Positions 1 to 15,169 of a DNA stretch of 15,169 nucleotides are shown piece after piece. The DNA is from Bdellovibrionia bacterium (GTDB taxonomy: Bacteria > Bdellovibrionota > UBA1018): positions 1 to 15,169 of the forward strand of contig JBJMMA010000235.1 in NCBI GenBank assembly GCA_045805065.1. The letters are read 5' to 3'. Made by a program: the position numbers and the translations under genes. The stretch's first letter is position 1, and the number at the start of each line of letters is the position of its first letter. The notes under the pieces are model-generated. The model was not told the DNA's origin. It did no database searches and was given only the letters and a program-made list of their open reading frames with translations.

Positions 1-36
1 TTCAGCGTGAAGCGGATAAAGAAGATTAAAGAGCAT
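1..36 (-). CDS. mraY: 5' fragment of probable phospho-N-acetylmuramoyl-pentapeptide transferase MraY (runs off the left edge)
   Basis: ATG at 36..34 reads MLFNLLYPLHAE, resembling the MLYxLLYPLH N-terminus I recall for deltaproteobacterial MraY. It is on the same strand as, and downstream of, ftsI-murE as expected for dcw order. Only 12 codons are visible. Confidence 0.65.
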   Translation of the reverse strand, partial: MLFNLLYPLHAE

Positions 37-41
37 ACGGG

Positions 42-71
42 ATGCTACAAATTTTTAAAAAGCCGTGTCAA
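42..71 (-). promoter_or_regulatory. sigma70-type promoter for the putative mraY, probably leaderless
   Basis: Minus strand reads TTGACA (71..66), an 18-nt spacer, TAGCAT (47..42), then 5 nt to the ATG at 36. No SD is visible. Confidence 0.6.
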
Positions 72-157
72 GGATTCCTTGCGTAGGGAGCGGCCTAGAG
101 TTGGACAATTCCCTGCGCTTCCCTCAGAATTGAGATTCGGGACGGGGGAATCCATTC

Positions 158-1690
158 ATGAGAAACGCACTTTTCGGTCTTTTCAGTCTGCTGGCGGTAA
201 TCGGGACTCACGCTTCAGCGTCCCCGGCGCATGATTCGACTCAACTTGCCTCTCTTCTCTCGTTTAAATTCCCTCGCTATGAACAATTGAAGATGCTTCC
301 TCCTGAAGCACAAAAGACTGTCATTGAGGGGATTCAGGCGTTCTTGATCCAAGCGGATCTAGAAGCGCGCAAGGGCGGCCAAGAGTCTGCCTTGAATGAC
401 CTCAATACTTTGAAGAGATTCTACGAGCTTTGGATTGAAACAGCAGAGGCAAAGCCGCGGTCTCGTTCTTCTTCAAAGTCCTCTTTAAAGTCCTCTGGGG
501 TGCAACAGCCTTATTGCATCAATCAAGGCGTCGTGAAACCTATCAGCGAATGCGATACATCGCTGGGGTATAAGATGCATGACTTTGATACAAACAAGGT
601 CTTATCGAAACTTGGACCTGCCTCTCAATGTCCCCCAGGTCAAATGCCCTGCAGCCCTTTCTTTGGCTTTACGTCCGAAGGACAGATGTTTTGCTCTTCT
701 AAAAACCTGACGCGCGATTGCGCGGAACAATCCAAACAGCCAGGCACCGTCTCGATCGTCAATGTCATGATGAGCTGTCAGGCTGGATCAGCTGGCGTGG
801 CCAAGGTGGATTGCAAGGCGTTAGGAGAATTCTTTGATCAGCAAATGGAAGTGGTCGAAAAGCTCTGTCAAAAGGCACCCAAGCGTTTTGCATGCGGAAT
901 CCTAAAGGATCAAATACGGGATGTGATGAACGAGGGCTCCGAGAAAAAGTCTGCCGCCAAAGAGGTTGGATTGGACAAAGTCGCAGAAGTCGTCCGAGCC
1001 ACAAACGAAGCTGCCCAGATGGACGCAGGTTCCGCTCCATGCCCGACCCAGGAGAAAGCTAAAGCCAAGTCTGCACCCGCTCCTGCAGCCAAGCCCAAGG
1101 AAGCACAGGCAGCATGTACTCAAAAGTCATCAGCCAAAAACTTTGAAAAACCGACATTGGATGCTTTGATAGCAGAACTCATGGGTGAGCACGCGGATGA
1201 CTTTGTCTGCGGAGAGCTGACTCTGCCAAACAAAAGCAAAATCGGCCTTAATCGAATGAAAGGTGAAATGACAGTCCAGGCAACGCCGGACTCCACACCG
1301 GTTACCTTGGATTTTGTCGAGGCTCAGCTTCTGGGAAATATATCAGCGGCACTTCTTGATCCGCCTCAAAAAGTTCCGCCTAAAGACCTTCTTGCACATT
1401 ACCTTCCAAAAGAGATCATGAAAGATCCTGGAAAAATCGTTCTAGAGAGCAAGGATGGTAAACAAAAGAAGGAATTTCCGTCCAAGGGATGGATCACGGC
1501 GAATGGAACACGGATTCGGTACATTCCCGGTGTTGATTTCGGCGATGAGAAAAAGCATATCGTGATGATGAGCGTTCAACTTCCCGGCAGCGCAAAAGAA
1601 ATGCGAATCGGCATCCCGCTCTCGCTCCCTGAGGATGGTCAGGAAGAACCGGCCAATGACTCCAAGGCTTTGCCAAGCCAGCCAGAGTAA
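158..1690 (+). CDS. secreted cysteine-rich hypothetical protein (510 aa)
   Basis: Long ORF with a Sec signal peptide (MRNALFGLFSLLAVIGTHASA), 13 Cys mostly in the central region (CINQG, CPPGQMPCSPFFG, etc.) and an Ala/Pro/Lys linker. GGGGA lies upstream of the ATG. No family recognised. Confidence 0.8.
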   Translation: MRNALFGLFSLLAVIGTHASASPAHDSTQLASLLSFKFPRYEQLKMLPPEAQKTVIEGIQAFLIQADLEARKGGQESALNDLNTLKRFYELWIETAEAKPRSRSSSKSSLKSSGVQQPYCINQGVVKPISECDTSLGYKMHDFDTNKVLSKLGPASQCPPGQMPCSPFFGFTSEGQMFCSSKNLTRDCAEQSKQPGTVSIVNVMMSCQAGSAGVAKVDCKALGEFFDQQMEVVEKLCQKAPKRFACGILKDQIRDVMNEGSEKKSAAKEVGLDKVAEVVRATNEAAQMDAGSAPCPTQEKAKAKSAPAPAAKPKEAQAACTQKSSAKNFEKPTLDALIAELMGEHADDFVCGELTLPNKSKIGLNRMKGEMTVQATPDSTPVTLDFVEAQLLGNISAALLDPPQKVPPKDLLAHYLPKEIMKDPGKIVLESKDGKQKKEFPSKGWITANGTRIRYIPGVDFGDEKKHIVMMSVQLPGSAKEMRIGIPLSLPEDGQEEPANDSKALPSQPE

Positions 1691-2661
1691 ACAACGAGGC
1701 CTCGATTCACTTCGTTCCAGGCTTTCATGGATTCATTCCAGCTGACCTCTGCCCACATCAGGGGCGAGAGATGTTCAGCGAAATGGGCCTGACAGTGGGC
1801 TTTCATCTCATCCAAGGTGAATAGTCTTTGCTCATCGCCCTTTTGAGGTTGGACCATCGCGGGTGAGAGCCAGCGGTGCTTGGGCAGAATCACCCAACGA
1901 TCGTCTCGGTTTTCTACCGGTACATCCAACTGATGAATCTCAGTCCACCACCCCTTTTGATGATGAGGAGAAACCTCCAATGGGTGAACATGATTCTTCC
2001 AGCTATTTTGGCAACTGCTTTGCGCCGGATAGAAGAGCATACCTTTGATCCAGGCAAGAGGTTGCGGACTTGGAAGTCCCAGATAAGCTAAGACGCTCTC
2101 CCCATCCAGGCGTTCACTCAGTTTCAACTGATGATGAAAGATTTTCGCTACCTTGATATCGAGCCGGTCTCGGTGCAAAGTTCCAAAGTAGTGGTTCATC
2201 TTTAGCGCCTGATCGGGCGTTTCGCCGGCAAATAGATAGAACTTCACCGCAGCTTCCCAGTGATAAATCTGCGAAGGCAGGGCGCCATGACCCGGGAGCT
2301 TGAAAACAAAATCAAACTCTCCCACCGTATTTCGACCCTGGCCCGGTTTTGAGGGCTCATGCTCCTGAACCGGCACGCCACCGTAAAATGCCTCGGGCTT
2401 CAGATACTCACGAATCCAGAAAGACAGTAGCGCTTCAAAGTATCGCCCCAGAAGCATGGTTTGATTTTCGCGACTTTTGAGATCCTCAAGAAGCGCCGCC
2501 GGGTTTTCATCACAACGGCGAAACCACTCCTCACCTTCTCGGGCTTTTTCCTGAAACCAATCGTCACGCAGAAGTCTGTCGGCAAAGGCAGGATGCTCTG
2601 GATTGAGCAGGCCTGGTCCTTTCAAGATCCAATAGAGATCGCGAACGCTTGGGGTCCTCAT
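1639..2661 (-). CDS. DUF1853 family protein (putative PD-(D/E)XK-like fold)
   Basis: Motifs VRDLYW, LGRYFEALL, TVGEFDFVF, HWEAAVKFYL, KGMLFYP, GWW and WLSP are typical of DUF1853. Start placed at ATG 2661, which overlaps the upstream TGA (ATGA, 2658-2661). Confidence 0.8.
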   Translation of the reverse strand: MRTPSVRDLYWILKGPGLLNPEHPAFADRLLRDDWFQEKAREGEEWFRRCDENPAALLEDLKSRENQTMLLGRYFEALLSFWIREYLKPEAFYGGVPVQEHEPSKPGQGRNTVGEFDFVFKLPGHGALPSQIYHWEAAVKFYLFAGETPDQALKMNHYFGTLHRDRLDIKVAKIFHHQLKLSERLDGESVLAYLGLPSPQPLAWIKGMLFYPAQSSCQNSWKNHVHPLEVSPHHQKGWWTEIHQLDVPVENRDDRWVILPKHRWLSPAMVQPQKGDEQRLFTLDEMKAHCQAHFAEHLSPLMWAEVSWNESMKAWNEVNRGLVVYSGWLGKALESLAGSS

Positions 2662-3614
2662 TGGGATTGGAAATGCTCTTTCTCCCAAATCGCCTCTTTG
2701 ACTGCAATCGCAAGATCTTGGACTTTTCCAACGCCAAAGAAATGCACGAACACAAGTTTTGGAGTCTCTTGAGTCATGTGCGTATGGATTGAAGTGATCT
2801 GGATGTTGGCTTCGAGCAAGTCTTTCAGGACAAAGGGAAGCTCGGTCTCAAGGGATGCGACATCGCCGTTCACGACAGCGTTCTCGTCGCTCCCTGCAAA
2901 CGTGGCCCAGCTACTGGCGCCTGTTGATTGTCCGAGCTTCTGATTTTGAAGAGTCGTGCTTCGAGGCAGTTCCACCCGGAAAACTCCGTTGGACATCTCG
3001 CCTTTCCAAAGAAGACTCTCCATGGTCTTTTGATTCAAATCGCTGTGAGCAATATCGGCAGGAACGGAATCCAAGCGAGCGGCCTTGTGCTTGTCGGACT
3101 TTCTCTCTTTGATGCGTTCACCATTCAGAGTTGAATAAACCCAACCCATGGCGCGCGCCATGAGCTCTTCGCTACCAGTTCCCTCAATATGAAGCGACAT
3201 CACTCGTGACGAATCCATCATGAAGCGATTATGCAATGAGGTTGCCGTGAGCCCCTGATCGAGGATGGCACGTAGAACCGGACCTACTTCTTCCTGACGC
3301 AATGGGAGATCGCCTAAAAGAAGGGCATGATCCCGCGTTCCAGAAATCGTCATCCAGGCCGTCAGACCAAACTCCGGTGTAAGCTTCACGCCCTGAACCG
3401 TTGTCTCAAGATTTGGGCGCTGGAACTTGAATTGGTAAGTGCTGCCGTGGAGGTTTCCCTTCACTTTGGAGTTCTCTTCAATGACCGCAGAACTCAGGCC
3501 CGAATCTGATAAGGCGTGGGTTTTTCCTAAAAACAGCGCTCCACCGAGGAACAAGAAACCTAAGATCAAGGCGATGGCGACAGGATGAGGATGCTTGGTT
3601 TGAGACGTCTGCAT
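2658..3614 (-). CDS. DUF1259 (LppY/LpqO-like) tandem-domain protein with N-terminal membrane anchor or signal
   Basis: Two repeats with GD(L/V)xxxxxE and xxH(N/T)x motifs (GDLPLRQEEV...TSLHNRF; GDVASLETEL...ITSIHTHM...FVHFFG) and a hydrophobic N-terminal segment. Confidence 0.8.
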   Translation of the reverse strand: MQTSQTKHPHPVAIALILGFLFLGGALFLGKTHALSDSGLSSAVIEENSKVKGNLHGSTYQFKFQRPNLETTVQGVKLTPEFGLTAWMTISGTRDHALLLGDLPLRQEEVGPVLRAILDQGLTATSLHNRFMMDSSRVMSLHIEGTGSEELMARAMGWVYSTLNGERIKERKSDKHKAARLDSVPADIAHSDLNQKTMESLLWKGEMSNGVFRVELPRSTTLQNQKLGQSTGASSWATFAGSDENAVVNGDVASLETELPFVLKDLLEANIQITSIHTHMTQETPKLVFVHFFGVGKVQDLAIAVKEAIWEKEHFQSQ

Positions 3615-3648
3615 TCTCCAGTCATATCACAATTTAGGCGAAAACGCC

Positions 3649-5160
3649 TTACTTGAGCCGGAGCGCCTCACTTGCCACTTCCCGATCATCGAAGTGGATC
3701 TTGGTTGTTCCGATAATTTGATAATCTTCGTGTCCTTTTCCTGCGATGAGAACAATATCGCCGCGCTTTGCATCATCAATGGCTGAATAAATCGCCTTTT
3801 TACGATCCGGCTCGACAGTAAAGTTCGAGTGCCCGCTCATTCCTGACACAATCTCATCGATGATGGACTGAGGATTTTCGGTACGTGGATTATCGGATGT
3901 AACGATTGTCAGATCTGAAAGTTCTACAGCAAGCTTTCCCATCACTGGCCGCTTGGTGCGGTCGCGGTCGCCGCCGCAACCAAACACGGTGATCAATCGA
4001 GGAGATCCCCCGCTACTTTGCCTACTGTCTTGAATGATCCCGCGCAATGTTTGCAGAACTTTTTCAAGCGCATCAGGTTTATGAGCATAATCCACAAGAA
4101 CATGGATGCCTTGTGCGTTTGGAACTGCCTGAAGCCTGCCTGGTACAGACTCCAGCTCGTTCACGCCTTGGGCAATCGCCTGGGGATTAAGCTTAAGTCC
4201 CAACGCCGCTCCCACAGCGCCTAAAATGTTTGCGACGTTAAACTTTGCGGTCAGGGCGGAATCAATTTTAACGCCCGCAATCTCTCCATGGATTCCTTCC
4301 AAACCCATTTTCAGTAGCGAGCCCTGAAGCTCTGCAGGAGTTACATCCGAGGAATAGGTCACGACTCGCGCCATCTCGGCAGGCTTTCTGGCCTGAAGCT
4401 CGCGAGCCAATCGCTGACCCCATTCAGTATCGACTCCAATGCTTGCAACCGGAGCCTTGCCAGCTCTTCGTGACTCCGCCGCATACTCCGTAAAAAGCAT
4501 GGCCTTGGCGCCGAAGTAGTCTTCCATATCCGGGTGATAATCCAGATGTTCAGGCGTGAGGTTGGTGAAAATCATCGCATCAAAGGCAAGATAGGCAGCC
4601 CGGTGCTGCTTGAGTGAGTGAGAGGAAACTTCCATCACGACCGCAGTACAACCCGCGTCTCGCATCTCAGCCAGAAGCCTTTGAAGCTCGGCAGCACCCG
4701 GTGTCGTGTGGGTCGAATCAATGACCTTGTCTTTGTAACGAAAAGCGACAGTCCCAATGAGACCGACGTGATGGCCTGCCGCTTTGAGAATGGATTCAAC
4801 GAGATAAGAAGTCGTTGTCTTGCCACTCGTGCCTGTCACACCGACCATCAGCATGGCGTGTGAGGGATTGTCGTAAAAAGCTGCAGCAAGCCGCGCGAGT
4901 GCAAGTCTTCCGTTTGCAACTTGAAGATAGGGAATTCCCGCGGGCACCGGGTCTTCTCCCACAATGAGAGACGCGCCCGATTGATGCGCTTGCGCGATAA
5001 AGCGATGCCCATCCTGGCTCTCGCCACGGGTTGCGACAAAGATCATTCCGGGCTTCACCTGGCGGGAATCCGCCGTGACGCCTTGAACGCTGAGCGCTCT
5101 CACTTTTGAATCAAGTTTTGAAAGCCATTCACCTGGAAAAAATTCTTCAATTCGTCTCAT
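3649..5160 (-). CDS. murE: UDP-N-acetylmuramoyl-L-alanyl-D-glutamate--2,6-diaminopimelate ligase
   Basis: DSRQV, P-loop GVTGTSGKTT, HTTP, MEVSSH, FTNLTPEHLDYH, VDYAHKPD, FGCGGDRD, DNPR (meso-DAP type) and AGKGHE. ATGA overlap with ftsI. Confidence 0.97.
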   Translation of the reverse strand: MRRIEEFFPGEWLSKLDSKVRALSVQGVTADSRQVKPGMIFVATRGESQDGHRFIAQAHQSGASLIVGEDPVPAGIPYLQVANGRLALARLAAAFYDNPSHAMLMVGVTGTSGKTTTSYLVESILKAAGHHVGLIGTVAFRYKDKVIDSTHTTPGAAELQRLLAEMRDAGCTAVVMEVSSHSLKQHRAAYLAFDAMIFTNLTPEHLDYHPDMEDYFGAKAMLFTEYAAESRRAGKAPVASIGVDTEWGQRLARELQARKPAEMARVVTYSSDVTPAELQGSLLKMGLEGIHGEIAGVKIDSALTAKFNVANILGAVGAALGLKLNPQAIAQGVNELESVPGRLQAVPNAQGIHVLVDYAHKPDALEKVLQTLRGIIQDSRQSSGGSPRLITVFGCGGDRDRTKRPVMGKLAVELSDLTIVTSDNPRTENPQSIIDEIVSGMSGHSNFTVEPDRKKAIYSAIDDAKRGDIVLIAGKGHEDYQIIGTTKIHFDDREVASEALRLK

Positions 5161-7280
5161 TCGCCCTCGCCTAGAGTCAGGCGAACTGTATCGCCTTCGG
5201 CGATGGCTTGTCCAGGCTCAGGCGTCTGGGCCCGAACCAATCCTACGCCTTTGACTTCCAGGTTGAGAGAGTGCCCCTCGAGCGCTTCGACAACTTCGCG
5301 AGGCGTCAGACCTCTGAGCGCAGGCATTTTCCAGGCGGGGCGCTGTGCCGTAGCGGTGCTCGCCAGCTCAAGCTGAGGCGGAATGACTGCGCCAGGCTCC
5401 CGATTCTCTTGAGAGCTATTCAGCTTTGGAGCAGGAGCTTTCGCAGCAAGCGCAGTCTGATGAGCGACAGCTTTTGCGATTGCAGCCTGACTGCTGCGAA
5501 CCATATCAGCAGGAGGTGCTGCGGGCTGCTTTGCATCCGCCAACGTATTGCTCGCTGGAGCTGGAAGGCTAAAGCGATTTGCCACGGCATTCAAAACTTC
5601 ACGGAACAAAGGCGCCGCAACCTCGCCGCCGTAGTACTGACCATGAGGCTCATCGATAGAGGCAAAGATCACAATTTTTGGCTCAACTTGAAGCGGAAAT
5701 CCAATGAAGGATGCCACGTAGCGAGAGCGAGAATAGCGTTTGGTCTCAGGATCGATCTTTTGCGCGGTTCCGGTTTTTCCCGCAATCCGATAGCCATTGA
5801 GAACTGCGTTTCCGCCCGTTCCGCCTTCTTTAGTCTGCGTTGTCGACTCAAGCGCTTCAATGACTTGCGCGGTCACCTTTTCGGACAGGATTCTATGTGG
5901 CTCTGGCGGCTGAGTGTTCTTCGATTTGATCAGCGTTGGCTGAACGAGCCATCCGCCGTTTAGGAAAGATGCGTAAATCCGGGCCATCTGGATAGGTGTG
6001 ACCAAAACGCCATGTCCAAATCCAATGTTAGCCAGAGTAATCGGGGTCCAAGCCTTACGCTGCGGAACGCGACCATTAATCTCACCGGGAAATTCGATTC
6101 CGGTCTTGGTCCCAAAGCCAAAGCTGTGAAGTGCTGCCAGATATTTATCCGCACCAAGCTTCAGAGCAAGCTTTGCAGCGCCGACGTTACTGGAGACTTG
6201 AATGATCTTCTTCAGCGAGATCCATTCAAAGCGCTCGTGAGCGGTTGCTTCAGAGATCGTTCGGCCACCGATTTTAAATTTCCCGTGCTCGCCATAGAGT
6301 TGATCCGTGAGCTTCATGCCGTTGGACAAAGCAGCGGCAAGCAACGCGGGTTTCAAAGTCGATCCAGGTTCATAGCCGTCGGTCAGGGCGCGGTTGCGCT
6401 TACGATCCGGAGAAGCACCGCGAATGTTTGGATTAAAGGATGGCTCATTGGCCATCGCAAGAATCTCGCCATTCATGGCGTTCATGACGATGACACTTCC
6501 GCCGCGAGCGTTGGCTTTTCTGACCGCGTTTCTGAGCTCTTCTTCAACCGAGTATTGAAGGGATGCGTCCAGAGTCAGGGTGACAGGCTCGCCATCGCGA
6601 CCTTCTTGAGCATCTTTTGCAGCCTTCGAGTCAATGAAAGCAGGTCTTCCCAGAGCATCACGAACGGCGCTGACAGAGATCACTTTGCCGCGAAGCTTTT
6701 CGTTCTGAAGAAGCTCAATGCCTTCCGTTCCTTCGGAATCAAGATTGGTTCCGCCGATGATATGCGCTGCAAGCTCATTATGCGGATAAACGCGCTCGCT
6801 CTCGCTCACGATCCAGAGTCCGTTGATGAGATCGCCATCGGGACCGATGATGTGATGCGTGCGAAGTCTTTCAAACTCATGATCTGAAAGATGGCGCTTG
6901 ATCCAGGCAAAGCCACGCCGATCGTCCATCTTCTTCATGATGTGCGATTGCGGAAAATCGAGAGCTTTCGCAAGTAGCCTCGCAACCGCTTTGCGATGGG
7001 CGATTTTTTGCGGATTCATGGCAAGGCTTCGAGTCTCGCTGTTGATCGCAAGCGGCTCGCCGTTGCGGTCCAGAATCGAGCCGCGCCTTGGGCTCACCAG
7101 AAATTTTGTTGTAAACTGCCGGCGCGAGAGTTTTTCGAGGCGTTGATCGCCTCCGATCTGAATCCATGCGGCTCTTCCCGCAAGCAATCCCGCGCCTGCG
7201 AGGCAGAGGACCATCAGAACAATGAAACGAGACTTGAACGGATCGGCGTGGTTATTCTGCGAATTGTTCTGCGTGTTCAT
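5157..7280 (-). CDS. ftsI: cell-division class B penicillin-binding protein FtsI/PBP3 with C-terminal PASTA domain
   Basis: N-terminal TM, RGSILDRNG, RVYP, GxEGIE, EPGSTLK (SxxK), SSN, GKTGTAQK. An Ala/Pro linker precedes a PASTA-like MPALRGLT...QTPEPG segment. Lies between ftsL and murE. Confidence 0.95.
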   Translation of the reverse strand: MNTQNNSQNNHADPFKSRFIVLMVLCLAGAGLLAGRAAWIQIGGDQRLEKLSRRQFTTKFLVSPRRGSILDRNGEPLAINSETRSLAMNPQKIAHRKAVARLLAKALDFPQSHIMKKMDDRRGFAWIKRHLSDHEFERLRTHHIIGPDGDLINGLWIVSESERVYPHNELAAHIIGGTNLDSEGTEGIELLQNEKLRGKVISVSAVRDALGRPAFIDSKAAKDAQEGRDGEPVTLTLDASLQYSVEEELRNAVRKANARGGSVIVMNAMNGEILAMANEPSFNPNIRGASPDRKRNRALTDGYEPGSTLKPALLAAALSNGMKLTDQLYGEHGKFKIGGRTISEATAHERFEWISLKKIIQVSSNVGAAKLALKLGADKYLAALHSFGFGTKTGIEFPGEINGRVPQRKAWTPITLANIGFGHGVLVTPIQMARIYASFLNGGWLVQPTLIKSKNTQPPEPHRILSEKVTAQVIEALESTTQTKEGGTGGNAVLNGYRIAGKTGTAQKIDPETKRYSRSRYVASFIGFPLQVEPKIVIFASIDEPHGQYYGGEVAAPLFREVLNAVANRFSLPAPASNTLADAKQPAAPPADMVRSSQAAIAKAVAHQTALAAKAPAPKLNSSQENREPGAVIPPQLELASTATAQRPAWKMPALRGLTPREVVEALEGHSLNLEVKGVGLVRAQTPEPGQAIAEGDTVRLTLGEGE

Positions 7281-7648
7281 TTCGATGCCCGAGCAGGTTC
7301 GCGAACCGGTGCGCTTTGAGACATGTAGATGACTTGATCGGACTTCGGTTGATTGAGCCCAAAACGTGCTCGGGCGATCATCTCAAGTCGCCGCGGCGAT
7401 CGAAGACCTGCGACCTTCACATCCATTTTCTCACGCGCTTCTTTCAAAGCACGGATCTGACGATCGGCCTGATCGATTGCGTAGGTTTTGCGAACAATCG
7501 ATAAGCGAAGCGCAACCGTTCCAATCGCCATTGCAATCAAAACTGGAATGACCCAGAGAGGCATCCACTGACGCAATGAGCTTCCAGCCGAAGATTGATA
7601 GGATGACGACTTATTAAATGATGCAGATCCAGTTTGTCTTACGGCCAT
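7277..7648 (-). CDS. ftsL: cell division protein FtsL
   Basis: 123 aa with a single TM, a coiled coil and LRSPRRLEMIARARFGL. Located between rsmH and ftsI with an ATGA overlap. Confidence 0.85.
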   Translation of the reverse strand: MAVRQTGSASFNKSSSYQSSAGSSLRQWMPLWVIPVLIAMAIGTVALRLSIVRKTYAIDQADRQIRALKEAREKMDVKVAGLRSPRRLEMIARARFGLNQPKSDQVIYMSQSAPVREPARASK

Positions 7649-7660
7649 ATCCCCGGCCCT

Positions 7661-8599
7661 CTAACGGCGCTCAGCGATTCTCAGCTTTGCGCTTCTTGCT
7701 CGGGAGTTCCGACAAAGCTCCTCTTCATCGGCTTCAATAGGCTTTTTAGTGAGTGGTTCAAAGAGCGCCTCATCACGAGACGGACCTCTGAAAGCCAGCT
7801 TCACACGGCGATCCTCAAGCGAATGAAAGCTCAAGATCGCCACCCTTCCCCCCGGTTTAACTCCAAGGATAACACGACTTAAGAGCGAATCGAGCTCATT
7901 CAGCTCTTCATTCACTACAATTCTTAACGCCTGGAACGTCCGGGTTGCGGCATGAATCCTGCCATGACGAGCCGGAGGCGGGACCGCTCTCACGATCAGA
8001 TCCGCAAGCTCGCGTGCCGTGCGAGGCATTTGCTTTTCACGGCGCTTATCGACAATGACTTGCGCGATCCTGCGGGAAAACCGCTCTTCGCCGTACTCGC
8101 TCAACACCTTCTCAAGCTCGGGTTGCGTGACCGTCAAAAGATAGTCGCGGCAGCTCTGTCCTCGAGTGGGATCCAGTCTCATATCGAGAGGGCCATCGGA
8201 CATAAAGCTGATCCCGCGGTCATCGCTTTCGAGCTGGTCACTGGAAAACCCAAGGTCAGCCATCAGGCCAAGAATTTGTTTTCCTTCGAAGAATTGATCT
8301 GCGTCGCTGAAACGCGAATGCTCAATCACCAGGCGACCTTCTTCGATCTCTTTGGCAAAGCGGCGGCGTCCTGCTTCAACGGCTTTGGGATCCTGATCAA
8401 CCGAGAGGACTTTGTGACTGCTGAGCGCAGGGTCTGAGGCCAGGGCTTTTAGAAATTCGCCCGTATGCCCCCCACCCCCTAAAGTGCAGTCCACAATCCA
8501 ATGAGCTGGCGCATCGGCTGGAAGCTTTTTGAATGGCTCAATGAGCGCATTGACGATGGGTTCAACAAGAATGGGAATATGGACAGTTTCAGCGCTCAT
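7661..8599 (-). CDS. rsmH: 16S rRNA (cytosine1402-N4)-methyltransferase RsmH (MraW)
   Basis: HIPIL, VDCTLGGGGH, DLGFSSDQL, DGPLDMRLD, YGEERFSRRIA, ATRTFQALRIVVNEEL, SFHSLEDR, RARSAKLR. Confidence 0.97.
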   Translation of the reverse strand: MSAETVHIPILVEPIVNALIEPFKKLPADAPAHWIVDCTLGGGGHTGEFLKALASDPALSSHKVLSVDQDPKAVEAGRRRFAKEIEEGRLVIEHSRFSDADQFFEGKQILGLMADLGFSSDQLESDDRGISFMSDGPLDMRLDPTRGQSCRDYLLTVTQPELEKVLSEYGEERFSRRIAQVIVDKRREKQMPRTARELADLIVRAVPPPARHGRIHAATRTFQALRIVVNEELNELDSLLSRVILGVKPGGRVAILSFHSLEDRRVKLAFRGPSRDEALFEPLTKKPIEADEEELCRNSRARSAKLRIAERR

Positions 8600-9072
8600 G
8601 ATTTGTTAGTCCGCTTATAGACGTCGGAGTCGACAATTTCCATCCATCGTTCGGGCGCCTTCGTCACTTCAAAACCAAACTGCCGATAAAGTCCATGCGC
8701 GTCCCTTGTCGCAAGCGAGAATCGACGCAGCCCCTGAAGCTGAGGATGGCTTTGAATGCAGGTCATGAGCCATTTGGACAATCCCTGCCCACGAGACGAC
8801 TCTTCTATATAAACATCGCAAAGATAAGCAAAAGTGGCCGAATCGGTAATGACGCGTGCCAAACCGACCTGCTTCAGCCCTTTCGGCCCTTGAGAATCAA
8901 CTTCATAAACCCCAAAGCAAAGAGATCCCTCACAAGCCTTCTTGACTGTTTCAAAAGGAATCCCCTCGCACCAATAAAGCTTGCTCAAGACACCATGAAC
9001 TCTCAGCAAATCGAGAAGCTCCGGGTCGGTGCTGATGACGTGTTTGTCGCTACGCCATTCCTTGTGGGTCAT
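8596..9072 (-). CDS. GNAT family N-acetyltransferase
   Basis: QVGLARVITDSATFAYLCDVYI, RGQGLSKWLM (acetyl-CoA motif A), LATRDAHGLYRQFGF. GAGG SD. The stop overlaps the rsmH start. Confidence 0.92.
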   Translation of the reverse strand: MTHKEWRSDKHVISTDPELLDLLRVHGVLSKLYWCEGIPFETVKKACEGSLCFGVYEVDSQGPKGLKQVGLARVITDSATFAYLCDVYIEESSRGQGLSKWLMTCIQSHPQLQGLRRFSLATRDAHGLYRQFGFEVTKAPERWMEIVDSDVYKRTNKS

Positions 9073-9115
9073 TCCATTATCCTCTCATAAATGGGTCGTT
9101 CGAGCACTACTCAGA

Positions 9116-10039
9116 TCAGCCAACTTTGAACATTTGAAGTTGTCGGGGCAGTTGCTGGGGCGAATGATGGATCACCTGGTGGTGCCCCCTGCAAATTAAG
9201 GTGAGAGTATCCAAAGTCGTCATGCCACCTTCAGACAAAGGCTTAATATGGTGAATATCAAGCCAGCGCCTCTCAGAACATCTCACCCCTTGTAATGATC
9301 GGTGAGTGCATTGCCCTTGATCACGTAGTCGCACCGCATGCTCAAGCCGTGCTGGAATAAATCTTAAGTTAGAGCTTTCAGAGGGCGCATTTGCCTGTCC
9401 CGGGACAGGTTTCGAATCTATCCTTTGTGCAGTCCTTTTTTCGGCTCGCAAAGCCTTTTCCATTGGATCCTTCTTTTCGACAAAGAGTTCCAATGCCGCC
9501 CGCAAGGTCTCTTCCATCGTTGCCGCCCTGCCACTTTGAGACGACACTAAGTCCTGAACACGCTTAAGCAATTCATAGACATCTTCAGAGAGGCCAATTT
9601 TAAGCTCGATACGGTTTTCAGAAACATACCGAGTTCGATCTTGAACTTGTCTATCAGGAAACTCCCGGGCGATTTCTTTTTCAAGCTCGCGCTTGGATAG
9701 CTCAGCCGCTGATGAGAGCCACCGATCTTGATTCTCAAGCGTAAGTACCGAAGCAATCATCCGCGCATTAGAAACCGTAACTTCTTGTCTCTGGATCATT
9801 TCATGAAGCTTAGGAACTTCACGGGACTTTCTGGCAATCGTAATAAAATTAAAGCTCACACTTTCAGAAAGTCCTAAGCCTTGAGTGGCATAATCAAAAA
9901 GACTTTTGAAACCCATCTCGCGATACCCACGGCAATCGTCGATCTCCTGTAAAACAGAAATAAGTTCACTTTCTGCTCTGAGATTAGTCTTTGTGATTTG
10001 AAGTGCCTTTTCATGAAGAACTTTAAAGCTCGTTTTCAT
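9116..10039 (-). CDS. HNH endonuclease with DUF222-like N-terminal region
   Basis: N-terminal GFKSLFDYATQGLGLSE helical region. C-terminal VRLRDQGQCTH...C...LDIHHIKPLSEGG...LICRGHHQVIH HNH/Zn motif. Visibly more AT-rich than the flanking genes. Confidence 0.85.
   Translation of the reverse strand: MKTSFKVLHEKALQITKTNLRAESELISVLQEIDDCRGYREMGFKSLFDYATQGLGLSESVSFNFITIARKSREVPKLHEMIQRQEVTVSNARMIASVLTLENQDRWLSSAAELSKRELEKEIAREFPDRQVQDRTRYVSENRIELKIGLSEDVYELLKRVQDLVSSQSGRAATMEETLRAALELFVEKKDPMEKALRAEKRTAQRIDSKPVPGQANAPSESSNLRFIPARLEHAVRLRDQGQCTHRSLQGVRCSERRWLDIHHIKPLSEGGMTTLDTLTLICRGHHQVIHHSPQQLPRQLQMFKVG
9394..9409. repeat. 16-bp perfect palindrome, copy 1 (inside the HNH gene)
   Basis: CCTGTCCCGGGACAGG; encodes PVPGQ in the inter-domain linker. 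Confidence 0.9.
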
Positions 10040-10347
10040 GAACGGATCTATAGCATGCGTTTTTTGAGGCCCTTAAATGGCTTTGTGTTGAGCGATTTCG
10101 AGCGGCTTCAATTTTTTTGAAAAAATGACCTGAATCTCTTTGCAGAATGGAAATTAGCTAGAAATGGCCGCATTTTAAAACTTGTTTAAAGGCACTGAGA
10201 TTGATGCTGCCAAAAACCTGTCAATGTTTTCTGAAATTAAAGTGAGATATTTTCAGAATTAAAACTCAGTCTAGAACATCATGAAATCAAGATCACTGAG
10301 TCGCGAAATATTTTAGCTGGGAATTAGCCAGCCCAAAATACACATCC

Positions 10348-10367
10348 CGCCTGTCCCGGGACAGGCG
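10348..10367. repeat. 20-bp perfect palindrome, copy 2 (intergenic, upstream of the HNH gene)
   Basis: CGCCTGTCCCGGGACAGGCG; 17 nt (10349-10365) are identical to 9393-9409. Confidence 0.9.
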
Positions 10368-10434
10368 CTTACCAATTTAAGGCGTTACAGTCAGGCTCAA
10401 GCTCGAGCCCCGGCCCTAAGCCTGAAAAAACCAA

Positions 10435-11754
10435 TCAGTTTTGCGCAGCGGTGGTCACAGCAGAACCAGCAGCACCAGTCACCGAAGCTGGAGCTACGAC
10501 AGGAGCCGCCATAGGCTTTTTGAAATAAGTCTCGATCGCCTTACGAACCACATAAGACGACTTCACTCGCCAAAGTTTTTGGTGGATCGTCAAAGATGCA
10601 AACGCAATGCGACGGCCGCGGCCTTCGGCAAAAGCGACGAACCAGTCGTACTTGCCTTGAGGATCCGTACCGGTCAGAGAGCCGGTTTTTCCACCGACAT
10701 CGATGTCTTTAAATTTGGTGCGCTCAAAGCCGCGGAAAGATTTGCGAGAGGTGCCACGAATGACAGTCTCACGCATCAAGCGACGAAGCTCAGCAGCAGT
10801 CGATGGCTCGATTGAGAGCTGCGCGACCTTTGGCTTTGCTGAGTAAATTTCCTGACCTTCAGGAGAATAGACGGACTGAACCAGGTAAGGCTCCATCATC
10901 ACGCCTTCGTTCACAATCGTTGCAGCAATGAGAGCGCCTTGCATCGGGCTCATTGTGTTGTCACGAGTGTAGCCAGAGGCCGCTTCTGCGATTCCCCAAG
11001 CATCATCAGGAATCGGTGCCTTGCCTTGTTGGAACAAGAAGTCAGCCTGGATCTGGCGATTGAAACCGAAACGATCCGCGTAAGTGCGAAGCTCGACGGG
11101 ACCGACTGTAAAAGCACCGATACGGCCAAAGACGGTATTGATCGATTTTGCGAACGCGTCTTTCAGTGTCGCCTGGCGCGTCCAGCGGTTGATCTTATTC
11201 TTCAAAATATTGTGCTTATAAAGAGTATGGTTGGCGCCATTGAACTGGATCGGCGTATCGCCTGAGTATTTCTGATTTTCAATCGCAGCGGCTGCCGTCA
11301 CGACTTTAAAGACAGATGCGGACGGAAACGTCGCTCTGAAAGCCATGTTTTCTTTCATGTCAGACTTTTCAGAGTAGCTCACGACAGAGAGAATCTGGCC
11401 CGTGGTTGCGTCCATCGCGACAAACGCGCCGTAGTCCGGGCGGTACTGGCGAAACAGATTTTCCATCTCGTCTTGAAGAGTGGGATCAAAGGAGTATTGG
11501 AGAACAACTTTCGGAGCAATGCCCGGAATCTCCATCTCCGTTGGGAAATGATAAAAGGATGCGGATTGGCTCAGGATGCGCGCCAGGCTTTCCTTGGTCA
11601 CCAAGTCAGGGCGGCGAGTCAGCTTCTCCAAAGTTTGAGGCGAGTACTTCTTGAAAGCAAACCCTCCGGCAACCGCAACTACGGCGAGGCCTAGAAGTGC
11701 CATTTTTGAACGATTCATTTGAAAACGCTTATTCGCCATGGTGATGGTACTCAT
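10435..11754 (-). CDS. penicillin-binding protein consisting mainly of a transpeptidase domain
   Basis: N-terminal TM, GAFVAMDATTGQIL, ASVFK (SxxK), KSIN (SxN), GGKTGS (KTG), YDWFVAF. Lacks the long pedestal or transglycosylase domain. Confidence 0.9.
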   Translation of the reverse strand: MSTITMANKRFQMNRSKMALLGLAVVAVAGGFAFKKYSPQTLEKLTRRPDLVTKESLARILSQSASFYHFPTEMEIPGIAPKVVLQYSFDPTLQDEMENLFRQYRPDYGAFVAMDATTGQILSVVSYSEKSDMKENMAFRATFPSASVFKVVTAAAAIENQKYSGDTPIQFNGANHTLYKHNILKNKINRWTRQATLKDAFAKSINTVFGRIGAFTVGPVELRTYADRFGFNRQIQADFLFQQGKAPIPDDAWGIAEAASGYTRDNTMSPMQGALIAATIVNEGVMMEPYLVQSVYSPEGQEIYSAKPKVAQLSIEPSTAAELRRLMRETVIRGTSRKSFRGFERTKFKDIDVGGKTGSLTGTDPQGKYDWFVAFAEGRGRRIAFASLTIHQKLWRVKSSYVVRKAIETYFKKPMAAPVVAPASVTGAAGSAVTTAAQN

Positions 11755-11853
11755 GATCCGCGCAAAAACCCCGTCTACGCTCCCCAGATTGGATTTAGGT
11801 TCAGGTGGGGACGCTCCCGAGATTTAATCATGACATGGCAGCCGGGCCCTCGG

Positions 11854-12741
11854 TCAAGAATCTTCCGAGTCTAAATCATTTTCGCTTTCAATATCTTCGG
11901 CGGGATCCAGGGTCAGAGCCGAATTGGTTTCAAAGGAGAGAGGAAGAGCGCGCTCGGCAATTTTTTCCTCCTCCGTGATGTACCGCGCCTGGACCATCTT
12001 TCCGAGGATCGAGTAAATTGTTTTTCGAGCGTATTGCGTGAGCTGTTTTTGGCGAAAAGAAACGGAGTAGCGCTTGGGACTCGGGAGAAGCATTGCCAGA
12101 AAAGCCCCCTCTTTGGCCGTCAGCTCGGCCGGAGATTTTCCAAAATAAAATCTCGCTGCAGGCCCGATTCCATAAATGCCCTCACCGAACTCAGCGATGT
12201 TCAGATAGATTTCCAGAATCTTTGGCTTCTTGAAGGTCTCCTCAAGTTTCACGGCCAGGAAAAGCTCCTTCACCTTTCTCGCCATGGTCTTATCGGCATC
12301 GAGAAAGACGTTCTTGGCAACCTGTTGAGTGATGGTGCTGGCGCCCCGGGCAAACTTCCCCTTGGCCAGATCGTGATTCACGGCCTCTTTGATCGAATTA
12401 GGGTCATAGCCATGATGCTGATAAAAGGCCCAGTCCTCACTCACGACAATGGCGCCCACGGCCTTCTTGGAAATCTCCGAGATCGGCACCCACTGGGCGG
12501 GTCGGGACTTTTCAAATGTAATGGTGGTCTCGCGAGGCTTTGTCTCTCCCTGCACTTTCTTGAGCTGCTTGCCTGACATTTTTCCATGCATGGGCTTGGG
12601 CAGCGGAGAATAGTGAACGAGAGGGTATCGAGTCTTGAGAATCGAGACGTCAGGAAGGCCCATCCAATTGCAGCCCATAAGACCTACGGAGAGTCCCACG
12701 GAGGCTATTAAAACTAAAACCCGAGGTAGACGGAAAAGCAT
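11854..12741 (-). CDS. mtgA: monofunctional biosynthetic peptidoglycan transglycosylase (GT51)
   Basis: SEDWAFYQHHGYD, RGASTITQQVAKNVFL, RKVKE, KILEIYLN, GIYGI, ELT..EGAFLAMLLPSP. Start placed at ATG 12741 (AAGGA SD 7 nt upstream). Signal-like N-terminus ending LMGC. Confidence 0.9.
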   Translation of the reverse strand: MLFRLPRVLVLIASVGLSVGLMGCNWMGLPDVSILKTRYPLVHYSPLPKPMHGKMSGKQLKKVQGETKPRETTITFEKSRPAQWVPISEISKKAVGAIVVSEDWAFYQHHGYDPNSIKEAVNHDLAKGKFARGASTITQQVAKNVFLDADKTMARKVKELFLAVKLEETFKKPKILEIYLNIAEFGEGIYGIGPAARFYFGKSPAELTAKEGAFLAMLLPSPKRYSVSFRQKQLTQYARKTIYSILGKMVQARYITEEEKIAERALPLSFETNSALTLDPAEDIESENDLDSEDS

Positions 12742-12798
12742 GACGATTTCCTTGATAACACGGCGAGCCGTAAACCGCCAAGAATTCAATAGAATCTC

Positions 12799-12827
12799 TT
12801 GTTTAGGCTCATCTGCGATTGTAAGCT
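12799..12827 (+). promoter_or_regulatory. candidate sigma70 promoter for amn-mreB, probably leaderless
   Basis: TTGTTT (12799-12804), 17-nt spacer, TAAGCT (12822-12827). Predicted +1 is 12834, the GTG start. No SD. Confidence 0.4.
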
Positions 12828-12833
12828 CTCTGT

Positions 12834-13715
12834 GTGCAAAAAAAATCGAATTCGAAGAAGTCTAAGCTAGCTCTTCCTGAACTTCCGGAAGGCCTTCAAA
12901 ATAACCCGTACATCATTCCGAACACCAATCGGGTTTACACCAACCCGAACAAGCAGAAGATCGCACGCGACATTCTCGAGCGCTACACGGGAAGCCCGAT
13001 CGAGGCTTTCCAAAAGCAGATCATTCTGACCAATTTCGACTATTACCTGGAGCGCTTCCATAACCTCGTCGGCGACGAACGCACCCGCGGTTCGGCCATG
13101 GCAGCGGTTCACAGCAAAAAGACCGGCGTCTCCATCGTCGACTTCAAGATCGGCTCGCCAACGGCAGCCTTGATCATCGAAGTCCTCTCCGTGATCGAGC
13201 CCAAGGCAGTTTTGCTCCTGGGAATGTGCGGCGGTCTCCACCGTTCACTCAAAGTGGGCGACTTCATCTTGCCGACCGCTGCGATTCGTGACGAAGGCGC
13301 TTCCCGCCATTTCATGCCTCCGCAAGTGCCGGCTTTGCCGACCTTCAAGATCCAAAAGTTTGTTTCTCAAGTTATTGTAGAAAAGGGCTTGGATTACCGC
13401 ACCGGAGTCATTCATACTACGGATTATCGTTTCTGGGAGTTTGATCAAAAATTCAAGGCATCGCTCTATGAAGAGCGCTCCTTGGGGATCGACATGGAAA
13501 CCGCGACGTTGTTCGTCGGTGGTTTCGCGAGCAAGGTACCGATTGGTGCGTTGCTCCTGGTTTCGGATCTGCCTTTCAAACGGGGTGGAATCAAAACCAA
13601 GAAGTCCGCGAAGGCTGTGTTCCGCAGATTCACGGATCTTCACTTGGAGATCGGGATCAAGTCCATGAGCGAGATCGCAGACCGCGGTGAACATATTCGA
13701 CATTACAAGTGGTGA
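12834..13715 (+). CDS. amn: AMP nucleosidase (short PNP/UDP-phosphorylase-fold type)
   Basis: LERYTGS, ILTNF, FKIGSPTAAL, LGMCGGL, GDFILPTAAIRDEGAS, TTDYRFWE, IDMETATLF, GALLLVSDLP. The exact start (GTG) is uncertain. Confidence 0.88.
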   Translation: MQKKSNSKKSKLALPELPEGLQNNPYIIPNTNRVYTNPNKQKIARDILERYTGSPIEAFQKQIILTNFDYYLERFHNLVGDERTRGSAMAAVHSKKTGVSIVDFKIGSPTAALIIEVLSVIEPKAVLLLGMCGGLHRSLKVGDFILPTAAIRDEGASRHFMPPQVPALPTFKIQKFVSQVIVEKGLDYRTGVIHTTDYRFWEFDQKFKASLYEERSLGIDMETATLFVGGFASKVPIGALLLVSDLPFKRGGIKTKKSAKAVFRRFTDLHLEIGIKSMSEIADRGEHIRHYKW

Positions 13716-13722
13716 GACCTAA

Positions 13723-14754
<1,032 letters not shown>

Positions 14755-14783
14755 GAATCAGGCCAAAGGCCATTTCAAAATTC

Positions 14784-14816
14784 AAAAAGCCTCCGTCGCA
14801 AGACGGGGGCTTTTTT
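14784..14816. terminator. intrinsic terminator after mreB, probably bidirectional
   Basis: AAAAA-GCCTCCGTC-GCAA-GACGGGGGC-TTTTTT: a 9-bp stem with a GNRA loop, a T tract on the plus strand and an A5 tract that gives a U tract on the minus strand. Confidence 0.9.
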
Positions 14817-14831
14817 GTTTTCGGGACCTAC

Positions 14832-14860
14832 TTATCAACAAAGTTATCCACTTATCCACA
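14832..14860 (+). promoter_or_regulatory. cluster of three co-oriented DnaA boxes
   Basis: TTATCAACA (14832-14840), TTATCCACT (14844-14852) and TTATCCACA (14852-14860, perfect R-box). Confidence 0.6.
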
Positions 14861-14937
14861 CGGCTTTAAAACGCACCAAACCCAGCAGCCTCACATCAGT
14901 GCGGGGCTCCGGTTACGCTGTACCCAGAGCACTTACC

Positions 14938-15087
14938 TCACAATTGCCTTAAGTAGTGAGACACTAAAGCAGCCAGAAAAACCAGAAACCTAGCTAAGAC
15001 AATGAGATACCAGGTTTTCTGTTTAAGTTTTTCCAGCCTGATCCGATAAAGATAATAATCACGGTTGGGACCGTTCTTATTTCTCAT
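14938..15087 (-). CDS. small basic membrane peptide, 49 aa, candidate type I toxin
   Basis: Manual translation MRNKNGPNRDYYLYRIRLEKLKQKTWYLIVLARFLVFLAALVSHYLRQL*. Preceded by AGAAAGGAGGTGATCC, with GGAGG 7 nt from the ATG. Ten K/R versus two D/E, and a ~20-residue hydrophobic stretch (W26-L46). Confidence 0.75.
   Translation of the reverse strand: MRNKNGPNRDYYLYRIRLEKLKQKTWYLIVLARFLVFLAALVSHYLRQL
15023..15049 (+). promoter_or_regulatory. sigma28 (FliA)-type promoter, antisense to the small ORF
   Basis: TTAAGTTT-N11-TCCGATAA versus the enterobacterial consensus TAAAGTTT-N11-GCCGATAA: 7/8 in each box with exact spacing. Confidence 0.7.
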
Positions 15088-15088
15088 A

Positions 15089-15121
15089 GGATCACCTCCT
15101 TTCTTCACAGGGAAAGGAGGT
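15089..15121 (-). promoter_or_regulatory. extended Shine-Dalgarno sequestered by an upstream anti-SD hairpin
   Basis: Minus strand ACCTCCTTTC-CCTGTGAA-GAAAGGAGGT-GATCC-T-ATG: a 10-bp perfect stem covering the whole SD core. Confidence 0.8.
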
Positions 15122-15154
15122 AGTTCCTTCTACGCTGCCGGGTTTGGCTGGCGA

Positions 15155-15160
15155 ATCATA
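15155..15160 (-). promoter_or_regulatory. candidate -10 box for the small-ORF mRNA
   Basis: TATGAT on the minus strand puts the TSS at about 15148-15149, where the 5' arm of the long-range pairing begins. The -35 would lie outside the window. Confidence 0.45.
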
Positions 15161-15169
15161 AAAGCAAAA

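Follow-up and report, generated by a model that had tools for sequence, protein, structure and literature searches.

A covarying terminal helix pairs the ends of a predicted small-peptide mRNA family in Bdellovibrionota

Introduction

Bacterial RNAs can be kept silent or stable by their own structure in several ways. The primary transcripts of tisB, zorO, dinQ and shoB are inert through local structure in the 5′ untranslated region (UTR), and they need processing or a trans-acting factor. In the non-coding 6S, 4.5S, tmRNA and Y RNAs, a long terminal stem joins the 5′ and 3′ ends and shields them. The hok/Sok system, known from plasmid R1 and from chromosomal hok loci, combines a hydrophobic peptide of about 50 amino acids with structure over the full length of the message, a covarying pairing of its 5′ and 3′ ends (fbi-tac), and multiple chromosomal copies. 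For aapA/IsoA of Helicobacter pylori, a published account describes a long-distance interaction that itself holds the sequence complementary to the Shine-Dalgarno site (anti-SD), such that 3′ truncation frees the Shine-Dalgarno (SD) site and gives the translatable form (PMC6733600). Here we describe a small open reading frame (ORF) at the end of a 15,169-nucleotide stretch of DNA from a Bdellovibrionia bacterium (contig JBJMMA010000235.1, positions 1 to 15,169; hereafter the window), together with its relatives in other genomes. Its minus-strand mRNA is predicted to be closed by a conserved helix between the two RNA ends, which we call P1, and to carry a ribosome-binding site that is masked locally rather than by that helix.

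The terminal helix P1

The initial annotation of this DNA proposed that the 5′ end of the small-ORF message pairs with its 3′ end over 15 consecutive positions, and we recovered this helix exactly, with 13 Watson-Crick and two G-U pairs (15148-15134 with 14889-14875, minus strand). Its two arms are:

15134..15148, minus strand: P1 5′ arm, GCCAAACCCGGCAGC, seen in the sequence, the minimum free energy (MFE) fold, the RNAalifold consensus and the covariation

14875..14889, minus strand: P1 3′ arm, GCTGCTGGGTTTGGT, that is, GCUGCUGGGUUUGGU, seen in the sequence and the covariation, with homology stopping about 3 nucleotides (nt) downstream

As also proposed, both G-U pairs (15148/14875 and 15139/14884) belong to the minus strand and become A-C mismatches on the plus strand. 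P1 is part of the MFE fold of minus-strand positions 15169-14790, which has an energy of -141.2 kcal/mol (z = -5.76; 0 of 100 shuffles as low). Because 6 of 200 dinucleotide shuffles of the window segment contain an uninterrupted helix of at least 15 pairs (G-U allowed), the length of P1 taken alone is only marginal evidence. Its duplex energy of -28.4 kcal/mol was reached by none of 200 shuffles (mean -14.3, standard deviation 2.7). Judged from sequence, the decisive support for P1 is comparative and stands above these single-sequence controls.

We aligned 36 distinct full-length copies of the element from 13 genomes with MAFFT (alignment A1), leaving out exact duplicates and one copy with an internal deletion (L051); counts out of 36 below refer to this set. 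RNAalifold recovered P1 from the alignment, and the helix was found in the individual MFE folds of 30-35 copies. The compensatory changes expected in homologues were there: both sides had changed at 11 of 14 P1 pairs, and 96.4% of cells could pair, compared with 35-56% when the partners were slid by 1-3 columns as a control. The departures from Watson-Crick pairing were strongly biased by strand. The P1 cells comprised 422 Watson-Crick pairs, 64 G-U, 3 A-C and 15 others, and when the conserved terminal G-U was set aside there were still 33 G-U against 3 A-C. The sense duplex was more stable than its antisense counterpart in 33 copies. Since G-U outnumbers A-C by 64 to 3, P1 is an RNA helix on the peptide-coding strand, and the strand specificity first read from two pairs in the window thus extends across the family.

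As a held-out check we used 10 further full-length copies from public contigs that lay outside A1, nine of which had a recognizable 5′ arm. Seven of these nine formed 14 of 14 pairs and the other two formed 13 of 14, with 108 Watson-Crick, 16 G-U and 2 A-C cells in all.

The position of P1 relative to the conserved unit agrees with the further proposal that it closes the small-ORF mRNA. Homology runs from the promoter described below to a point about 3 nt past the 3′ arm, where similarity between genomes ends; in relatives the -12 element of this promoter is found 13-16 nt upstream of the 5′ arm, counted from the C of TTGC. P1, at 14-15 base pairs, resembles the pairing of 5′ and 3′ ends that closes full-length hok mRNA.

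Promoter and RNA ends

Sigma-54 recognizes the consensus TGGCAC-N5-TTGCW, in which GG at -24 and GC at -12 are spaced by 10 nt. The pattern xGGCAY-N5-TTGCT precedes the 5′ arm in relatives of the window copy; 38 of 40 copies have the TTGCT, 30 of them with GG 10 nt upstream. The window retains one half of this element:

15163..15167, minus strand: TTGCT, -12 half of a sigma-54-type promoter at a position shared with relatives; the -24 half would lie beyond the contig end

From the -12 spacing and the usual distance between a sigma-54 promoter and its start site, we infer that the RNA begins 1-4 nt before the 5′ arm, at about 15152 in the window. The source genome encodes rpoN (one gene with a Sigma54_DBD match) and has 24 Sigma54_activat matches, of which about 17 are strong. 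Roughly 80-105 nt upstream of the element, a dyad of the form TCCGA-N2-4-TCGGA (for example in L033, L027, L035 and L037) occurs with at most two mismatches in 22 of 40 copies, compared with 6.6 expected from shuffles, and is a candidate activator-binding site. A search of the source genome for other members of the same regulon gave 98 sigma-54-like sites, none with a good upstream dyad. The same dyad half-site was also seen 3′ of some copies (L041, L048, L049).

At the other end of the RNA, T follows the 3′ arm at each of positions +1 to +3 in 20-22 of 36 copies. Of 37 copies, 6 have a distinct terminator-like hairpin within 160 nt and 31 do not. The window copy is one of the six, by virtue of the terminator of the convergent gene mreB:

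14784..14815, both strands: bidirectional terminator-like hairpin shared between convergent mreB and the small-peptide RNA, for which it may offer an alternative 3′ end 60-90 nt downstream of the 3′ arm

The inner half of P1 is GC-rich and is followed by GUUUGGU(UUU), and this half together with GUUUGGUUU may act as a termination signal. In a pattern scan of metagenomes, every one of the 32 loci recovered sat on a contig of more than 1.2 kb, and none resembled a transcript with ends that could mark those of the RNA.

Internal helices and the masked translation start

Beyond P1 we counted ten helices, and P2 through P9 also show compensatory changes in A1. Over the whole structure, 84.9% of cells pair, compared with 39-53% in slid controls, and both sides have changed in 44 of 73 pairs; none of 500 shuffles reached these values. 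The counts for P3 and P5 are underestimates because the MAFFT alignment is poor there. The main helices and sites outside P1 are:

15120..15133, minus strand: P2, a GUAG/CUAC hairpin with the loop AAGGAA, which contains a GGA motif; supported by covariation

15094..15121, minus strand: P3, in which the anti-SD ACCUCCUUUC pairs with the SD GAAAGGAGGU; supported by the MFE fold and covariation

15089..15104, minus strand: extended SD AGAAAGGAGGUGAUCC, a 16-nt perfect complement of the 3′ tail of the organism's own 16S rRNA; identified by sequence match

14906..14930, minus strand: P9, a 3′-UTR hairpin with the nearly invariant loop GGGUACAGC..UAACC; supported by covariation

In P2, the pair between columns 24 and 38 has changed on both sides in seven copies, and the loop GGA is kept in 32 of 36. 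CCCCC/GGGGG variants of P3 occur among the copies. P4 pairs GAUCC..AUGA with UCAUCGGAUC, and the start codon is thus paired as well, while P5-P7 lie within the coding region. P9 matches the 3′-UTR hairpin of the initial annotation (14930-14906, GCUCUGG with CCGGAGC, one U-G pair, 11-nt loop), and its sense fold is the more stable in 31 of 36 copies.

The extended SD is exceptional within the source genome, where its 16-mer occurs only twice, at the 16S gene and here. All 16 nt are kept in 19 of 36 copies and at least 13 nt in 22. The ORF's own SD lies 7 nt before the AUG, a normal spacing. The anti-SD, which copies 10 nt of the 16S tail, is only 8 nt upstream of the SD, and P1 lies outside this pairing. 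Unlike the aapA long-distance helix, P1 thus contains no anti-SD; the SD is masked by the local hairpin P3, and its probability of being unpaired is about 0.01 in the window copy.

The initial annotation further proposed that the message is activated by 3′ processing and suggested comparing folds of the full-length and 3′-truncated forms. We computed unpaired probabilities in all 36 copies for the full-length RNA, the RNA without its 3′ arm and four shorter 3′-truncated forms. Averaged over copies, the SD was unpaired with a mean probability of 0.05 and the AUG with 0.19-0.22 in every length form, and these in silico truncations exposed neither. Nor did the freed 5′ arm, in predicted folds without the 3′ arm, find a family-wide alternative partner beyond a tiny self-hairpin. 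With accessibility unchanged and no new partner, activation by 3′ trimming in the manner of hok or aapA is not supported by the modeling. The translation lock appears to be local, and P1 must therefore do something else; on these predicted folds it would not be the translational lock.

The encoded peptide

The small ORF reads:

14938..15087, minus strand: 49 codons plus stop, ATG at 15087; supported by an open frame and its conservation

The window peptide of 49 amino acids has a basic N-terminus and a hydrophobic C-terminal half. Family peptides have 42-53 residues, share the hydrophobic C-terminal half, and follow the consensus MKN..YY.HRI.LEKLKQKTW.L.VLAK.L.FL..L...YL; they are thus small (<60 amino acids) and hydrophobic, as type I toxins are. 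In each of the 33 copies tested, only the peptide frame is open; the other two are interrupted by stops. Among these copies the median pairwise ratio of nonsynonymous to synonymous change (dN/dS) is 0.41, third codon positions account for 39% of differences, and all but one of the gap runs within the ORF have a length divisible by three. In the AlphaFold model, residues 8-48 form a single predicted helix, at a mean predicted local distance difference test score (pLDDT) of 82.

Searches placed the peptide in no described family. A peptide profile found 109 proteins, all unnamed or 'hypothetical', from metagenome-assembled genomes (MAGs) of Bdellovibrionota or Oligoflexia wherever an organism was given. 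Pfam and NCBIfam gave no consistent family for 33 family peptides and no Pfam family for the window peptide, and the Hok family did not match any of the 33 in either database at E up to 1. The ESM Atlas returned only 'hypothetical' clusters with scores of 0.80. At the RNA level, Rfam had no matches in the window at the gathering score; at E up to 10, most matches were of generic terminator types and lay on the mreB terminator, and a further three, weak and sub-threshold, overlapped the element.

A candidate antisense RNA

On the strand opposite the message, a possible promoter is oriented toward the translation start:

15030..15059, plus strand: TTTCCA-18-AATAAT, candidate sigma-70-like promoter (9 of 12 matches), antisense over the start codon and SD

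The complement of P3 on this strand is flagged as terminator-like in the window. P3 contains 33 A-C cells and 15 G-U, the reverse of the bias in P1. The P3 hairpin is more stable in the antisense direction in 30 of 36 copies, as is the span of columns 20-130 in 29, whereas P6/P7, P9 and the 3′ UTR are more stable in the sense direction in 29-31. After shuffling, the 5′ span had z = -4.96 antisense and -4.13 sense (antisense lower in 24 of 36 copies), and the 3′ span had z = -1.01 antisense and -1.81 sense (antisense lower in 9 of 36). A conserved neighboring small-RNA gene was not found, homology stopping at the promoter and at the 3′ arm. A cis-antisense RNA over the SD and AUG is thus weakly indicated by these sequence features, as a lead and not as a finding.

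In columns 37-80 of A1 (window 15094-15121) many copies carry C-A mismatches on the mRNA strand that would be G-U on the opposite strand, and the strand bias of the SD/anti-SD hairpin is the reverse of that in every other helix.

Copies and distribution

A DNA search of 60 relatives gave many matches bounded at query positions 19-22 and about 295, which are the outer edges of the P1 arms. After more loci had been fetched, iterated nhmmer searches gave 48 matches, about 40 of them full length. The repeated unit is about 275 nt long and occurs in 1-18 copies per genome, both in tandem and dispersed. When 301 genomes from the phylum were sampled, the peptide profile matched 14, with a maximum of 18 matches in any one. 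These 14 genomes belong to four families, all within the order of the window; among the genomes searched from other orders of the phylum, none matched. Named records come from Oligoflexia, Bdellovibrionia, Bacteriovoracaceae, Bacteriovorax and 'Bdellovibrionota bacterium FG-2', and one record, a 2.2-kb contig, is labeled Rickettsiales. At least one locus is labeled Bacteriovorax stolpii, a cultured species, which makes experiments feasible. A DNA pattern scan of a genome collection was unspecific, a strong SD followed by ATGA being present in many phyla; 21 of 80 loci fetched from it were family members (nhmmer E <= 1e-20). Neighbors of the element were not conserved: 40 flanking ORFs from 21 loci belonged to unrelated Pfam families and had no mutual BLASTP match at 1e-5. 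A literature search, supplements excluded, found no published account of the family or of a comparable system in Bdellovibrionota.

Some relatives carry mini-copies of about 170-220 nt (L044/L083, L053/L070, L046, L091). In these, the hydrophobic coding half and parts of the 3′ UTR have been lost through an internal deletion, while promoter, 5′ UTR and P1 arms, the latter still perfectly matched, are retained.

The one copy in the source assembly sits at a contig end, the usual breakpoint of assemblies at collapsed repeats. Copies in relatives were also seen at contig ends (L112, L118, L131, L134), and because several copies sit there, the copy numbers taken from short-read MAGs are probably underestimates.

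Interpretation and alternatives

Taken together, the sequences and predicted folds lead us to favor, with a confidence somewhat above even, an mRNA of about 275 nt that is end-protected, translationally locked and type-I-toxin-like, with P1 as its terminal helix. A sigma-54-type promoter would produce this minus-strand RNA starting 1-4 nt before the 5′ arm. P1 would bury both RNA ends and could shield the molecule from end-dependent nucleases. The message would be made inert by the caging of its SD by the adjacent anti-SD, which resembles the 16S tail, and by the holding of its AUG in a second local helix; translation would then need a trigger acting in trans. The unit would behave like a type I toxin mRNA in its small hydrophobic peptide, its dispersed and tandem copies and its inert folded transcript, and a short RNA transcribed in cis, antisense to the SD and AUG, would serve as antitoxin.

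On present sequence comparisons, the unit fits best as a new family of toxin-like small-ORF mRNAs that would resemble hok and aapA in the closure of its ends but not in its translation block, and that would belong to neither. It shares with hok/Sok a hydrophobic peptide of similar length, structure over the full length, covarying end pairing and multiple chromosomal copies. It differs in that its peptide has no sequence relation to Hok, its SD is masked by an adjacent anti-SD and not through a refolding pathway (no refolding being predicted after 3′ trimming), its promoter is of the sigma-54 type and its antisense RNA is only a candidate. With aapA/IsoA, the likeness lies in several chromosomal copies, an inert mRNA held by structure, a conserved compensatory interaction of 5′ and 3′ ends, and local hairpins that sequester the SD; the long-distance helix here, unlike that of aapA, excludes the SD, and the local hairpin would be the stable state and not a metastable one. 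With tisB, zorO, dinQ and shoB the family has in common an SD made unavailable by local 5′ structure, but no end-to-end helix is known for those genes, their promoters are of the LexA or sigma-70 type, and no 5′-processing site can be deduced here. The closure by a terminal stem recalls 6S, 4.5S, tmRNA and Y RNA, from which the family differs in carrying a conserved open frame with its own SD.

If this interpretation is right, an undescribed, covariation-rich family would join an RNA to a small protein and would extend type-I-like biology to Bdellovibrionota. It would be unusual in three respects: its end-to-end helix, like those of hok and aapA in form, would play no part in SD masking; its toxin-like small gene would be driven by a sigma-54-type promoter; and its SD, at 16 nt the longest possible, would be caged by a 16S-tail mimic. 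The family would also offer a clean natural test of the effects of a terminal helix on mRNA stability and termination. A bolder version, which we regard as a long shot, would see, in predatory Bacteriovorax-type bacteria, a new class of type-I-like module: a regulon of as many as about 18 small-peptide mRNAs, driven by sigma-54 and its activator and sealed against nucleases, in which P1 doubles as terminator and the uncaged 16-nt SD gives either a peptide burst or a clamp on 30S subunits, the whole serving as a life-cycle or dormancy switch.

Several points weigh against a toxin-like, end-protected message. Other copies read TGGCAC or TGGCAT at -24, but three from the same genus as the window read GAGCAT or GAGTAT, with AG in place of GG, and this deviation at -24 makes the sigma-54 dependence of the window copy uncertain; its own promoter is cut by the contig end at -12. 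Both the protection and the termination ascribed to P1 are things we infer. A dN/dS of 0.41 would indicate only moderate constraint on the peptide, which matched no known toxin family. Strict matches to the antisense promoter occur at the same column in only 10 of 36 copies and are absent from divergent ones, and the antisense stability bias is partly base composition, because shuffling controls shrink the difference between strands. Finally, nhmmer and tblastn searches of the source genome, as assembled, for further copies found the window copy only.

Some of these points fit the alternative that survives best, which we nevertheless consider unlikely: that this is the gene of an ordinary, non-toxic small membrane protein, for example a stress or life-cycle regulator induced through sigma-54, with a very stable, tightly regulated mRNA and no antitoxin. 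Such a gene would account for the lack of a family-wide antisense promoter and of any toxin-family match, and transcriptional control by sigma-54 and an activator could suffice for it. The polar N-terminal half of the peptide is unlike most known type I toxins and also favors this alternative. It fits less well with the many dispersed, tandem and decayed copies, which are typical of type I loci, and the sequestration of both SD and AUG in the full-length RNA would be unusual for a gene meant to be expressed.

Less probable again is a toxin mRNA of the hok/aapA type in the strict sense, kept inert by its 5′-3′ pairing until slow trimming by a 3′ exonuclease lets it refold and be translated. Covariation does support a closing helix like those of hok and aapA, the small hydrophobic peptide and the multi-copy loci suit the model, and trimming might have an indirect effect if it laid the 5′ end open to 5′-dependent nucleases. 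However, the SD is masked by the local anti-SD and not by the 3′ end, averages over the 36 copies give the same SD and AUG accessibility without the 3′ arm, and the freed 5′ arm has no conserved alternative partner. In addition, 3′ exonucleases act poorly on a flush helix whose tail is about 3 nt long. A point in this model's favor is that such long-distance interactions, together with activation by 3′ truncation, are described for aapA (PMC6733600).

We give still less weight, as an improbable case, to a chiefly regulatory RNA with a secondary peptide, in which 30S subunits would be titrated or parked by the unmasked 16-nt stretch complementary to the 16S tail, or CsrA would be titrated by GGA motifs. 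The SD stretch is complementary to the whole 16-nt end of the 16S rRNA, well past the length of a normal SD, and is otherwise unique in the genome; the P2-loop GGA recurs in 32 of 36 copies, and the source genome encodes csrA (CsrA binding being putative); and mini-copies without the hydrophobic coding half retain promoter, 5′ UTR and P1. Set against this are the conserved open frame, indels in threes, dN/dS below 1 and the normal spacing of SD and AUG.

The weakest proposal, a DNA-level repeat resembling a miniature inverted-repeat transposable element with the arms as terminal inverted repeats, or a self-copying palindrome, would suit multi-copy, dispersed units with unrelated flanks and internal-deletion derivatives that keep both arms, but we rejected it as scarcely credible in view of the strand-biased mismatch cells (64 G-U, 3 A-C), the pairing of P1 in held-out copies, the conserved open frame, the covariation of nine further internal helices, and a conserved unit that continues upstream of the 5′ arm for at least 30 nt, and possibly for about 100 nt, to take in the promoter, such that the arms are not the repeat ends.

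Genomic setting of the window copy

The source assembly comprises 4.2 Mb in 262 contigs, and the window is one whole contig (C235). The last 400 bases of the contig are preceded by mreB (13723-14754, plus strand; Pfam MreB_Mbl, E = 5.5e-153). The small ORF, with GGAGG before its start codon, lies on the minus strand, convergent to mreB, and only 21 bases separate the 5′ arm of P1 from the contig end.

The stretch from 9116 to 14754 contains, ahead of mreB and ending with it, an ORF with an HNH motif (weak match) and genes for a penicillin-binding protein transpeptidase, a monofunctional transglycosylase and a PNP_UDP_1 phosphorylase, a set that includes cell-wall genes. Neither mreC nor mreD was found 3′ of mreB before the contig end.

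Between the 3′ arm and the mreB terminator, outside the repeated RNA unit, a perfect DnaA box, TGTGGATAA (14860-14852, minus strand), is followed directly by a box matching at eight of nine positions and then by TTGATAAGT, the cluster spanning 14844-14860. This pair is a lone outlying cluster. Elsewhere in the genome, 16 of the 38 perfect DnaA boxes crowd into 3.3 kb of another contig (C221, 15.8-19.0 kb), which is therefore probably oriC.

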